Of a stretch of DNA of 64,000 bases, positions 10,777 through 57,403 are shown piece by piece. Position 1 is the first letter of the stretch. Each line of letters opens with the position of its first letter. The position numbers and the translations under genes are program-made. The DNA comes from a virus (lineage: Duplodnaviria > Heunggongvirae > Uroviricota > Caudoviricetes). The DNA lies in IMG/VR virus record IMGVR_UViG_2802429224_000004, positions 1 to 64,000 of that record; one strand, written 5' to 3'. The notes beneath the pieces were generated by a model. It saw only the letters and a list, made by a program, of their open reading frames with translations, searched no databases and had not been told where the DNA came from.

Positions 10777-10793
10777 ATTGCTCTAATTAATTT
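10777..10793. promoter_or_regulatory. C1 repressor operator-like 17-mer upstream of ssb
   Basis: ATTGCTCTAATTAATTT, 16/17 match to remembered P1 C1 operator consensus ATTGCTCTAATAAATTT. Confidence 0.5.
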
Positions 10794-10812
10794 ATTTTAT
10801 TAGGTAAGATAA

Positions 10813-11301
10813 GTGGCACAACGCGGTGTAAACAAAGTCATCCTGATTGGTACCCTGGGGCAAGCCCCGGAGATCAGGTATATACCAAATGGCGGAGCGG
10901 TCGGAAGACTCAGCATCGCAACGAATGAATCATGGCGCGACAAGCAAACGGGCCAACAGAAAGAGCAAACAGAATGGCATAAAGTCGTTTTGTTCGGAAA
11001 ACTTGCTGAAATTGCGAGTGAATATTTACGAAAAGGTTCTCAGGTCTACATCGAAGGGAAACTTAAAACCCGTAAGTGGACAGATGACGCCGGTGTAGAA
11101 CGTTACACGACGGAAATTATCGTCAGCCAGGGCGGCACCATGCAAATGATCGGCGCTCGCCGTGACGATTCACAGTCCTCAAATGGCTGGGGGCAATCAA
11201 ACCAACCTCAAAACCACCAGCAATACAGTGGTGGCGGTAAACCTCAGAGCAACGCCAATAACGAACCTCCAATGGACTTTGACGACGATATTCCGTTTTG
11301 A
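10813..11301 (+). CDS. ssb: single-stranded DNA-binding protein
   Basis: 162 aa, GTG start; OB-fold N-terminus highly similar to E. coli SSB, Gly/Gln-rich linker, acidic tail DFDDDIPF. Confidence 0.9.
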
Positions 11302-11498
11302 ATGTGTAAAAAACGACTGAAAGAAAAGCGGTGGTCCAGACGCCGACAAAAGTACGAACTCGCAAACAAACGCCAAAGTTGGCAATGGCACGCGCTTTTC
11401 ACGAAAAGAACACCCCGAGATATTGCTTTCGCTGGTGGGAAAACATTCCTGACCCACCTGAAGGCGCAAGACATCAGGTTTTAAGCAGAGGAAAGACT

Positions 11499-12176
11499 AT
11501 GAATAACATGACAACGAAAGAGCTTTTGACGGCACTTCCAAAATACAAAAGCCATAAAACAGTTCGCGCCTCAAAAATCAAAGATATCGAAATTATCGCC
11601 CTAATGGATGTGGTCCTTTTTTGCAACATCGAAGTCGTTGAGCCAGAAGGGGTAAAAGTCCATGTTGATAAAATGTTTTTGCAAAAACACCGACCAGAAA
11701 TTGGCGGATATCTGGTCGCTTATGAGAACGGATCTCTGTCCTATTCACCAGAAAAAACATTTGAAGAAGGCTTTAGTCGGACTAACGACTTCTTCGAAAA
11801 TGGGGTATCGCTCAGTATTGAAGGTCACAATGGGGTGACATTCATTACAGCCAGGGACGTAACTATTTCTGCTGGCGGTATCGCTACTCTACAAGAAGAA
11901 ATCGACCTTGAAGCAGCCGACTTTTCTGACGCGCTGATGTGGCTGAAGGATGGCAAGAAAGTTGCTCGACGCGGGTGGAACGGCGAAAACCAATTCTGCT
12001 GGCTGGTTCCTGAAGGACAGTACCCGGCACGAATGGAAGCCATTAAGGGATATTTCCCCGGCGACCTCGTTCCGTATGGTGCTTATTTCGCCTTAAAAAA
12101 TGCACAAGGTGTAGTTGTTCCGTGGGTTCCTTCTGTAGGCGACTTACTGGCATGTGACTGGTTTGTAGTGGAGTGA
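11499..12176 (+). CDS. DUF2829 (Tad2-like) domain protein with unknown N-terminal domain
   Basis: ATG at 11499 with gagg RBS; C-terminal ~85 aa carry the DUF2829 signature (ALMWLKDGKKVARRGWNGENQF ... VVPWVPSVGDLLACDWFVVE). Confidence 0.5.
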   Translation: MNNMTTKELLTALPKYKSHKTVRASKIKDIEIIALMDVVLFCNIEVVEPEGVKVHVDKMFLQKHRPEIGGYLVAYENGSLSYSPEKTFEEGFSRTNDFFENGVSLSIEGHNGVTFITARDVTISAGGIATLQEEIDLEAADFSDALMWLKDGKKVARRGWNGENQFCWLVPEGQYPARMEAIKGYFPGDLVPYGAYFALKNAQGVVVPWVPSVGDLLACDWFVVE

Positions 12177-12182
12177 TTTAAC

Positions 12183-53864: not shown

Positions 53865-53881
53865 ATTGCTCTAATAAATAT
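53865..53881. promoter_or_regulatory. C1 repressor operator-like 17-mer upstream of uhr/hrdC/dmt
   Basis: ATTGCTCTAATAAATAT, 16/17 to consensus. Confidence 0.55.
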
Positions 53882-53952
53882 TGTTTTTTATGTCGTATTT
53901 TCGGTACCATTCAGCCATCGCCCTTCAATGGGCATTTGTTTGGAGTCGTCAG

Positions 53953-54237
53953 ATGCAGATGGAGCTAATAAGCCGCAAAGAGTTCGATAGCCGTGTAACC
54001 AGCGGTGAACTCGACAATTTGCAGGCTATCAAGGTGAAAGAAGGCTTTTGCCTCATTGGGAATCAGAGCGGAACAAATCGCGTTTTTATGCTTCGCCGTA
54101 CGGATTTGAAGCCATTTGTCTGGAAGAACGAAATTGGTCCCAGCTCATACGCTCAAACGAGGGGGTGCCACAACCTGGCCTTTTTCTACAAAGACGAGCT
54201 TTCTGTGGTTGATATTCAAGGGTTACAACATGTTTAA
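53953..54237 (+). CDS. small protein upstream of hrdC
   Basis: ~94 aa from ATG 53953 with ggag RBS; position only. Confidence 0.35.
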
Positions 54238-55135
54238 GCACTGGAAAAACATTACTATTTATAAACTTTCTCGTGAGGCGGATCTGACCGATTTAGAAGC
54301 TAAAAAGAAAATGATCCTTTTCACGCCATGCTGTAGTCAGGATATGGTCAAGTTCGGTTTTGTATCTCCATTTGGTGATAATTCCGAAGTTATCGCTATG
54401 CATGGAAATGGTTTTATCCTTGTTGAAGCAAAGCGCGAAACAAAAATTCTTCCCCCGCCGGTTATCCAGCGAGCTATTCAAGAAAAAATTGAAAAACTTG
54501 AGCAAGAACAAGCGCGTAAACTGAAGAAAACAGAGAAGGACTCCCTGAAAGACGAAGTTCTGCATTCTCTTCTGCCACGGGCTTTTTCAAAGTTTTCTGT
54601 TATCCAGGCGATCTACGACGGTTCAACTAAACGTATCTATATCAATGCCAGCGCGCGGCAGGCAGAGGATATGCTCGCGCTTATGCGTAAATCTCTGGGT
54701 TCTCTTCCTGTTGTTCCCCTAAGTGTTGAAAATCCCATTGAATTAACGCTGACCGACTGGGTACGTGATGGTAGTGCTCCACAGGGATTTCAAATGGGGG
54801 ATGCGGCAGAACTTAAGGCAGTGCTTGAGGATGGCGGTATTGCCCGAGTGAAAAAGCAGGATTTGGGAAGCGATGAAATTTCCACACACCTGGAAGCTGG
54901 CAAGCTCGTCACTAAGTTGGCACTCGACTGGCAGAACCGCATTAAATTTACACTGGACCATAACTTCAGCCTTACCAGCGTCAAATTTGCGGATGAATTG
55001 CTTGAGCAGAACTCTGATATTGATAGTGAAGATGTAGCGCAGCGACTGGACGCAGATTTCTTCCTGTTGACCAGTGAAATTTCGTGCCTGGTTGATGCTC
55101 TGGTAAATGCCCTTGGTGGAGAGGCTAAGCAGTGA
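54230..55135 (+). CDS. hrdC: RdgC-homologous recombination-associated protein
   Basis: Near-identical blocks to E. coli RdgC ([62 protein letters not shown]). Confidence 0.85.
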
Positions 55136-57396
55136 AAGAGCTGTGCTATGGATCTGTTTGCAGTGGAATTGAAGCCGCGAGTATTGCCTGGGAACCGTTG
55201 GGTATGCGTCCGGCGTGGTTTGCTGAAATCGAGCCTTTTCCATCTGCCGTTCTTGCGCACCGCTGGCCCCATGTCGCCAACCTTGGCGACATGACAAAAC
55301 TTGCCAAAAAAGTCCTGGCTGGGGAAATCGAATCCCCTGATGTGCTCGTCGGGGGAACACCTTGTCAGGCATTCAGTATCGCTGGATTACGTGGTGGGCT
55401 TGATGATGAGCGTGGCGCGCTAACTTTAAAGTATGTGGAGCTTGCAAATGCAATTGACGACAAACGGGCTGAGTCATTTCTCAAACCAGCCGTTATCGTC
55501 TGGGAAAATGTCCCAGGAGTCTTGTCATCGGCAGATAACGCCTTCGGATGTTTCCTTGCCGGATTGGCTGGAGAAGATGCGCCATTTGAACCAGGTGATC
55601 GACCTGAATCAGGAAAAAGTAACGCGTTCTGGCGGTGGGATGGCAAAACCGGTTGCCATGCTCCAAAGTGGCCGCAGTGTGGTTGTATTTATGGACCGCA
55701 GCGAAAAGTGGCCTGGAGAATCCTTGATGCCCAATACTTCGGAGTGGCACAACGACGCCGACGCGTGTTTGTTGTCGCAAGTGCTCGAACAGACCTCGAT
55801 CCCGCAACGGTACTTTTTGAGTTCGAAGGCGTGCGCCGGAATATTGCGCCGAGCCGAAAAAAGAAGGAAATCACTTCCGCCATTATTGCAAATGGCGCTG
55901 CAATCAGTGGCGAAAGCCTAAATCTATGCCTACACGCTGACATGCCACCCGGTATGAAATCGACGAAAGCCGTAAACGCTTTCAGGATGGCAGCATTTGG
56001 GGAATATATTGACGATGAAACCGCATCGACAGTAAAGGCAAGAGATTTTAAAGATGCCACTGACCTTGCCGTTTTTAGCAGCACAGGAGCAGGTTTTTGG
56101 TCAGAAGGGCATGGTACATTGCGGGCACGTGAGCAAGAAAGCCATGAGCATCTTGTTACATTGGCTTTTCCTGAGCGTATGAGCGGTACACAACATGCTG
56201 CAACTAAGAATACTTCACCATCTCTAATGGCTAAAAATCCAACAGCTGTTTGCTATGAAGTAAGAAACGCAGAAGTAGCTGTCCGCCGTCTTACCCCTGT
56301 CGAATGTGAAAGGCTGCAAGGTTTTCCTGATGGGCATACGTTGATCCCGACGGAAAAGCGTAAAAAAGTTAATTCAGATGAACTGGCATACCTTCGCAAA
56401 AACTATCCTGATTTGAGCGAAGAAGAGGCCGCGATGCTTGCAGCTGACGGACCGCGTTACAAAGCGATCGGCAATAGTATGGCGATACCAGTAATGCGCT
56501 GGATTGGCGATCGGATTACCAAGGCTGCATGTCGGCAGAATGAAGGGAATGAAACAAAAGAGCGAAAAGTTAAACCAGCGGCAGAATTCGAACGGTCCAT
56601 ATTCAAATGGGCTGGTGGAAAATTTGGTGTTCTGGAACAAATCTTTCGCTATTTGCCAGAAGGGAAGCGCCTGATTGAACCTTTCGTCGGTGGCGGAGCT
56701 GTCTTCATGAATGCCGGATACAAGGAAAATCTGCTAAATGATGTGAATGCTGACCTGATTAACTTTTACAAGACTTTGCAACGTGAGGAACGTTCACTTA
56801 TCACTCTGGCGCATCGGTTTTTCCAGGACTACAACACACAGGAAGGATACCTGGCAGTACGGAATGCGTTTAACAAACAAGTCTATGATGATTTACATCG
56901 CGCAGCGGCGTTTTTGTTCCTGAACCGACATTGTTTTAACGGATTGACGCGTTACAACCAAGCCGGTGAGTTCAATGTCGGTTATGGGAAGTATAAAACT
57001 CCGTATTTCCCATTGCAGGAGATGGAAGCCTTCCTTGGTGCGGAAGGGCGTTCTGAGTTTGTATGTGGTGATTTTGCTGCGGTGATTGAAGCTGCCGGAG
57101 AAGGAGATGTCATTTTTTGCGATCCGCCATATGAACCGCTTCCAAATACAGAGGGATTCACGAACTATTCCGGTCATGACTTTAAGTTTGAAGAGCAAAA
57201 ACGCCTGGTGTCTCTGTTGACGGATGCTCATCGCCGAGGTGCAAAGGTTCTAATTACTAACAGTGGCGCGCCAAATATCAGAGAGCTTTATCATGACAGT
57301 GGCTTCAGAGTGGAACCTCTTTTTGCCAGACGTTCTGTGTCTTGTAAGGGGGACACTCGAGGTGTAGCTCATGACGTTTTAGGTATATTGCTCTAA
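55132..57396 (+). CDS. dmt: bifunctional DNA methyltransferase: C5-cytosine N-terminal domain + Dam-like N6-adenine C-terminal domain
   Basis: 754 aa; C5-MTase motifs [12 protein letters not shown] and WENVPGV; C-terminal Dam-like FKWAGGK and DPPY (FCDPPYEP); size as remembered for P1 Dmt. Confidence 0.85.
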
Positions 57397-57403
57397 TAAA
57401 TTT
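57387..57403. promoter_or_regulatory. C1 repressor operator (Op72-like) ahead of tRNA/ban region
   Basis: ATTGCTCTAATAAATTT, perfect 17/17; overlaps dmt stop codon. Confidence 0.55.

Follow-up and report, generated by a model that had tools for sequence, protein, structure and literature searches.

Introduction

The C1 operators of bacteriophage P1 have been mapped since the late 1980s and are annotated in the reference genomes of P1 and P7. Each of them is a single, asymmetric site for a C1 monomer, and together they are scattered over the genome at many promoters, whereas the operators of phage lambda are clustered in the palindromic OL and OR triplets. P1 immunity resembles the CI type of lambda in that the repressor of the prophage blocks early lytic promoters and is itself opposed by antirepressors, to which P1 adds the co-repressor Lxc and an antirepressor module controlled by an antisense RNA, immI. 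In P1, C1 recognises an asymmetric 17-bp consensus at some 22 dispersed genomic sites and represses early lytic functions, being helped by Lxc and antagonised by Coi and Ant1/2 (PMC8546580). Here we describe sites of this kind in a stretch of viral DNA of 64,000 nucleotides (the window; bases 1–64000 of contig PTST01000020.1, GCA_002965365.1, 95,284 bp), which very probably are the C1 operators of a P1-like (Punavirus) phage-plasmid and correspond one-to-one to the P1 operators Op21, Op51, Op53, Op55 (truncated here), Op68 and Op72a/b.

The contig was read over bases 1–73485, the remaining approximately 22 kb being bases 73486–95284. The closest phage records found by megablast were P1, P7, RCS47, SJ46 and related Punavirus genomes (96–98% identity), and by blastn the window is collinear with positions 10317–74851 of P1 (AF234172), in about 20 blocks of 93–98.5% identity that cover most of it. 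This synteny includes darB, prt/pro, the tail and baseplate genes, immI, kilA-repL, par, dmt and ban, and places the element in Punavirus. Homology to P1 is lacking at 11.5–13.0 kb, in the tail-fibre region and at 34514–36526, 40685–41379, 49282–51532 and 58984–60073; eight variable cargo regions have been described in P1-like phage-plasmids (PMC9603915), and the non-P1 stretches of the window match published regions 2–7. Among its P1-like relatives the window is a mosaic, sharing the cargo trio in the sim slot and the truncated Op55 with pATCC10729_02 (97.8% identity to the window over 19 kb), the c4 specificity loops with SJ46, D6 and pATCC10729_02, and a tRNA-like gene with pEA22_2. No full-length counterpart of the element at an identity of at least 99% was found among the records compared.

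Operator motif search

The asymmetric 17-mer consensus ATTGCTCTAATAAATTT, searched for with up to three mismatches, was found at seven sites in the window, compared with 0.36 expected from dinucleotide shuffles, none of 100 of which gave seven. The site at 57387(+) matches without mismatch, those at 10777(+), 36762(+), 38910(+) and 53865(+) have one mismatch each, 57398(-) has two and 6927(+) three. A leave-out position weight matrix (PWM), trained on 11 annotated P1 operators, none of which falls in the P1 region corresponding to the window, returned six sites of at least 20 bits (20.5–27.8), the next best being 6927 at 16.2 bits; in 300 first-order Markov simulations, sites of at least 20 bits had a mean of 0.007 and a maximum of one. 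The six sites conform to the operator motif, with 0–2 mismatches, scores of 20.5–29.1 bits and an intact invariant core (T3, C5, C7, T8, A9, A10 and T11).

An earlier note on this DNA, made from the sequence alone, had proposed that C1-type operators at ssb, immI, kilA-repL, uhr/hrdC/dmt and ban make up an immunity regulon, and this core reading is borne out by the P1 orthologs and the identical promoter hexamers described below. Its five 17-mers all lie where it had placed them, on the + strand, and the PWM scan with known P1 operators that it had suggested as a check finds them enriched. Its count of six good sites has to be amended: the five stand, the sixth that it listed is the partial site at 40675, and the true sixth is a site on the minus strand at 57398–57414 that it had not listed and that moves the end of the feature from 57403 to 57414. 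The partial site is nonetheless real, consisting of ATTGCTCTAAT followed by unrelated sequence, and the overlap of the 57387 site with the dmt stop was likewise found, as in P1.

Operators and their promoters

The sites and their P1 counterparts are as follows.

10777–10793, + strand: Ossb/Op21, ATTGCTCTAATTAATTT, identical to P1 21015–21031, annotated as 'monovalent C1-controlled operator Ossb'
36762–36778, + strand: Oc4/Op51, AGTGCTCTAATAAATTT, ortholog of P1 48140–48156, annotated as 'operator Oc4; controls expression of c4'
38910–38926, + strand: OrepL/Op53, TTTGCTCTAATAAATTT, identical to P1 49810–49826
40675–40685, + strand: remnant of Orlf/Op55, only the 11-nt core ATTGCTCTAAT, 3 nt past the repL stop
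53865–53881, + strand: Odmt/Op68, ATTGCTCTAATAAATAT, identical to P1 65145–65161
57387–57414, both strands: bivalent Obanab/Op72a+b, identical to P1 68667–68694

Every one of these sites is orthologous to a P1 feature annotated as protein_bind 'phage repressor C1', with constant coordinate offsets within the collinear blocks, and the window has the same consensus, loci, order, orientation and promoter hexamers as the C1 regulon of P1 (AF234172). Five of the seven sites have exactly the P1 sequence, among them both arms of Op72ab over the dmt stop; the two that differ are Op51, with a single change of A to G at the non-conserved position 2, and Op55, cut to its 11-nt core. The flanks of the sites agree with P1 at 155–177 of 178 bases, and all P1-annotated -35 and -10 hexamers (P2ssb/P1ssb, P51a, P51b, P53, Pdmt and P1ban/P2ban) are unchanged. 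The overlap or abutment of operators and promoters described here is predicted from the P1 annotation by homology.

Op21 (PWM 25.8–27.3 bits; 176 of 178 flanking bases as in P1) starts directly 3' of the -10 of P2ssb (10771–10776, TACATT), covers the -35 of the predicted P1ssb and is expected to control ssb (10813–11301). Op51, the positions 1–2 of which vary across relatives (AA, TC, AC), overlaps the -35 (36776–36782) of P2c4, also called P51a; the stronger P1c4, or P51b (36817–36845, TTGACC-17-TATAGT), which was also detected by a promoter scan, lies downstream and outside the operator. The operator core of Op51 is TGCTCTAAT. Op53 contains the -10 (38915–38920, TCTAAT) of P53/PkilA and would repress kilA (38996–39796) and repL (39826–40671), the lytic replicon, as repression of P53 by C1 through Op53 has been described (PMC9948254). 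Op68 (PWM 26.6–27.8 bits) abuts the -35 of Pdmt (53881–53886) with a 1-bp overlap and is the putative control site of uhr (53953–54237), hrdC (54230–55135) and dmt (55132–57396).

The bivalent operator consists of Op72a (57387–57403, +), which is the exact consensus, and Op72b (57398–57414, -), ATTACACTAATAAATTT, the two arms facing each other with a 6-bp overlap. It covers the -35 and -10 of P1ban and the -10 of P2ban, contains the dmt stop codon (57394–57396) and has 177 of 178 flanking bases as in P1, where the corresponding 68667–68694 is annotated as 'divalent C1-controlled operator Obanab; controls expression of ban' (AF234172). Beyond the window, the contig carries Op82 at 67677(-), Op83 at 68584(-), Op86a at 71301(+), Op86b at 71350(-) and Op88 at 73442(+), all identical to P1. 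The same operators are found at c4, kilA-repL, dmt, ban and other loci of P7, SJ46, RCS47, pATCC10729_02 and pEA22_2.

The remnant of Op55 scores -3.8 bits, compared with 19.0 bits for P1 Op55, and therefore does not conform to the operator motif, so that Op55 has effectively been lost here.

If the element behaves as P1 does, in the prophage C1, encoded elsewhere on the element, would bind each 17-bp site with the help of the co-repressor Lxc and, at sites overlapping or abutting sigma-70 promoters, would block early lytic transcription. The units silenced in this way would be ssb (with its Tad2-like cargo), the part of c4-icd-ant driven by P51a, kilA-repL, uhr-hrdC-dmt and the ban operon with its tRNAs and SPFH gene, and once Coi or Ant1/2 had inactivated C1, all of them would be switched on together. 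Binding by C1 and derepression are known for the identical P1 sequences (PMC8546580; PMC9948254).

The seventh match to the consensus was considered separately.

6927–6943, + strand: weak match, ATTGCCCTAATGTATTT, in the 5' end of darB, not annotated as a P1 operator

We rejected this match as a new operator and regard it as probably a chance or cryptic occurrence: it lies at about +100 within darB and not at a promoter, scores about 15–16 bits, near the null maximum, and has three mismatches, including a C at position 6 that is seen in 0 of 18 P1 operators. The sequence is the same in P1 and pATCC10729_02, and the counterpart in pEA22_2 is ATTGCACTAATGTATTT, with the permitted core base A at position 6 and a score of 20.4 bits; the 6927 site could be a cryptic or weak operator.

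The immI module

Downstream of Op51 lie the following features.

36839–36892, + strand: c4 a1/b1 targets, Rfam RF03163, 47.2 bits (gathering threshold 46.7)
36960–37045, + strand: C4 antisense RNA, Rfam RF01695, 70.8 bits (gathering threshold 45)
37092–37313 and 37310–38356, + strand: icd and ant1/ant2, by P1 synteny, with an ANT/KilAC domain (E = 1e-30)

As in immI, icd-ant is thus preceded by a C4 antisense RNA and its complementary a/b target pairs, and Op51 is predicted to exert part of the control over the operon (36839–38356). Among the window, P1 and P7, the recognition loops of C4 change in step with both target pairs (36839–37090). In the window the a loop resembles that of P7 (CTGCTAA/TTAGCAG) and the b loop is of a third type, GTAAGT/ACTTAC, common to SJ46, D6 and pATCC10729_02. 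Together the loops form a third specificity class, which implies that the immI specificity of the element differs from both that of P1 and that of P7. In D6, a more distant phage, the immI/repL locus has no P1-type sites, which confirms that the motif is confined to the immunity group of P1 and P7.

Another arrangement was observed in pEA22_2 (NZ_CP117630.1), which has three icd-ant modules, at 2943–4538, 32683–34325 and 50808–52477. One or two C1-type operators stand in front of each module, and the pair at 32683(+) and 32699(-) is arranged like Op72ab.

The C1 repressor

Several points weigh against a working C1 regulon on this element. A tblastn search with C1 found no homolog in the window or in contig bases 1–73485, and neither coi nor lxc was seen in that part of the contig. 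Binding and repression by C1, and the presence of c1 itself, are taken from the biochemistry of P1. The Op55-dependent part of the P1 regulon is absent. The enrichment of sites over shuffles, moreover, largely reflects common descent, because the DNA of the window is 96–98% identical to P1, and is no independent evidence of function or selection.

A rival reading is that the sites were inherited but are unused, as in a defective or heteroimmune derivative of P1 that lacks c1 or has a repressor of another specificity. The lack of c1 in the 73.5 kb read agrees with this, as does the fact that Op55 is already gone, and sequence identity to P1 would by itself keep the sites in place for a while. 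However, the contig has eleven full operators that match P1 exactly or almost so, even where the flanks have diverged, and by established P1 biology kilA and repL would be constitutive without C1 and the plasmid would not persist. The immI module, which targets C1, is intact, with fully co-varying c4 and target loops, and the contig agrees in length (95,284 bp) and synteny with complete relatives whose c1 maps to the segment corresponding to contig 73486–95284. We consider disused sites highly improbable.

The two complete relatives pATCC10729_02 and pEA22_2 have the same operators and encode one C1 protein (WP_000611656.1, 100% identity), which has 99.6% identity to that of P1; in P1 and the complete relatives, c1 lies in the region that corresponds to contig 73486–95284. 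Since these relatives encode C1 along with the operators, and since the immI module that antagonises C1 is intact, c1 is very likely present on this element as well.

The divergent cargo at Op51

On the other side of Op51, a divergent operon occupies the sim slot.

34615–36665, - strand: three-gene cargo in place of P1 simB/simC, with no P1 homology over 34514–36526
36174–36665, - strand: secreted 'simA-domain' protein of 163 amino acids (aa), with a signal peptide
35579–36085, - strand: 168-aa protein, with a signal peptide
34615–35592, - strand: 325-aa protein, with a borderline C-terminal SH3_3 domain (E = 8e-6)

The three proteins belong to phrog_3933, phrog_3429 and phrog_7086, PHROG families with no assigned function; they gave no PADLOC or NCBIfam match and, in Pfam, only the borderline SH3_3 and a sub-threshold PTPlike_phytase. 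The same trio occurs in 34 PLSDB plasmids. The 163-aa open reading frame (ORF) has its promoter region, ribosome-binding site and first approximately 46 codons in common with P1 simA (window 36526–36692 versus P1 47904–48070), whereas the cargo downstream differs. From this shared leader, the 52-aa SimA of P1 looks like a 5' remnant of a family of 163–215 aa (phrog_3933). The P1 remnant consists of the signal peptide and about 30 residues, and phrog_3933 is full-length in the element and in phage Ro157c2.

The earlier note had also suggested that this operon may be controlled by the repressor, as the operator sits at its 5' side; as written, that suggestion was not supported, no positive evidence having been obtained for it and homology beginning at operator base 3 elsewhere. 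A more specific form of it would be that Op51 is shared and bidirectional, repressing both P51a and a divergent promoter in the simA leader and thereby bringing the trio into the C1 regulon. The geometry is compatible with this, since the operator lies 97 bp upstream of the first cargo ATG (36665) and at about -39 to -55 of the predicted PsimA (-35 at 36751–36756, -10 at 36730–36735), and the operator of Pdmt, which is accepted as C1-controlled, lies at -36 to -52, with a spacing to the -35 that differs by approximately 6 bp. P1, pATCC10729_02 and Ro157c2 also conserve the simA leader, with its predicted promoter, ribosome-binding site and signal-peptide codons, along with the operator.

Op51 does not, however, overlap the predicted core promoter, from the -35 of which it is separated by a 5-bp gap, and PsimA is a weak promoter known from prediction only (TTTAAT, 15-nt spacer, TCTAAT) that was missed by the promoter scan. 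In P7, SJ46 and RCS47 the slot holds an unrelated two-gene cargo, also unrelated in its upstream region, whose first gene starts 282 bp away from Op51. There the homology with the window sets in at base 3 of the operator, which shows that Op51 is inherited as part of the c4-icd-ant side and not of the cargo. The annotations of P1 and P7 assign Op51 to c4 only, and no expression data for the sim slot were found in the literature. Steric interference of Op51 with the predicted PsimA is conceivable, and bidirectional control as a whole seems to us unlikely.

Operator edges as possible exchange junctions

The same boundary at Op51, together with that at Op55, bears on another idea, namely that the operators double as junctions for module exchange, by recombination through the short homology of the 17-mers. 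Homology between the window and P1 ends at 40685, inside Op55 and directly past the 11-nt core, and resumes after 41379, a hok/sok cargo (Rfam sok, 40980–41154, 115.7 bits) replacing rlfA-rlfB-pmgF; homology with P7 and SJ46 breaks at base 3 of Op51. The three icd-ant modules of pEA22_2, each preceded by an operator, would fit the same pattern.

These are only two coincidences, however, with about 0.07 expected for the P1 comparison (approximately 24 breakpoints and 190 bp of operator in 64 kb), and are suggestive only. At the 3' junction of repL, the truncated Op55 of the window is also found in pATCC10729_02 and RCS47, and a full Op55 in P1 and P7, so that five elements give two alleles sharing the core, but SJ46 and pEA22_2 have another repL 3' end, a third allele without any operator core, which gives weak support to operators as recurrent recombination junctions. 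Selection for intact regulatory modules would explain boundaries at operator edges equally well. A role as exchange junctions is, in our view, very unlikely.

Cargo and neighbouring features

Variable genes in or beside the operator-controlled units are listed here with the ban operon.

11331–12176, + strand: Tad2-like (Thoeris anti-defence) ORF, PF11195 (E = 2.5e-22), just downstream of ssb
12183–12965, + strand: 260-aa ORF after the Tad2-like ORF, in P1 variable region 2
58068–62805, + strand: ban operon, downstream of Op72ab
58068–58142, + strand: tRNA-Asn (ARAGORN/Rfam)
58145–58275, + strand: atypical tRNA-like gene of about 130 nt, at the position of P1 tRNA-Thr
59010–60054, + strand: 78-aa ORF and SPFH/Band_7 protein (Band_7, E = 1e-30), replacing P1 tciABC between the tRNAs and ban
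60082–60157, + strand: tRNA with anticodon CAT (ARAGORN/Rfam)
60437–61807 and 61807–62805, + strand: ban/DnaB and dbn, by DnaB Pfam domains and P1 synteny

In its cargo, the window differs from P1 in the Tad2-like gene after ssb, the SPFH gene in place of tciABC and the secreted/SH3 trio in place of simBC. Neither a promoter-like site nor a + strand terminator-like site was detected between ssb and the Tad2-like and 260-aa ORFs, and these are probably co-transcribed from the ssb promoter controlled by Op21. From their positions we infer that the Tad2-like and 260-aa genes, and likewise the 78-aa and SPFH genes, may be co-regulated by C1. A broader scheme can be drawn in which Op51 is bidirectional and any cargo of the sim slot would be silent in the lysogen and turned on with the early lytic genes, the cargo hotspots (as with the Tad2-like and SPFH genes) being wired into the C1 regulon and the operator edges forming the exchange boundaries; such a scheme we hold to be quite doubtful.

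The tRNA-like gene at 58145–58275 retains an acceptor stem, a D-arm-like 5' part, a T arm and an encoded CCA, the anticodon-arm region being replaced or expanded by about 57 nt that include a UUCG-capped hairpin. It received no ARAGORN call, with or without intron mode, and no Rfam tRNA match at E <= 1. Copies 89.6–99.6% identical occur in phage-plasmids of E. albertii, Salmonella and E. coli and are kept even where the neighbours differ, e.g., where the upstream tRNA is tRNA-Tyr; the homologues are too alike for covariation. The gene may be a pseudo-tRNA, an interrupted tRNA or a decoy.

The replicon region at 49282–51532 has no homology to the IncY repA/incA of P1, and in the closest relative its counterpart is annotated as a RepB-family initiator and a GIY-YIG nuclease. 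The replicon is of the p0111 type, known from P1-like plasmids.

Conclusions

The operator set described here is already known, being that of the P1 C1 system itself, carried almost unchanged by a mosaic P1-like plasmid, and it shows that Op55 is dispensable in this lineage. Its practical value lies in annotation, as the operators mark cargo that is probably induced with the early lytic genes, such as the Tad2-like anti-Thoeris gene and the SPFH gene. Gating of a cargo slot by Op51, if true, would inform how accessory genes plug into the regulatory circuits of phages.

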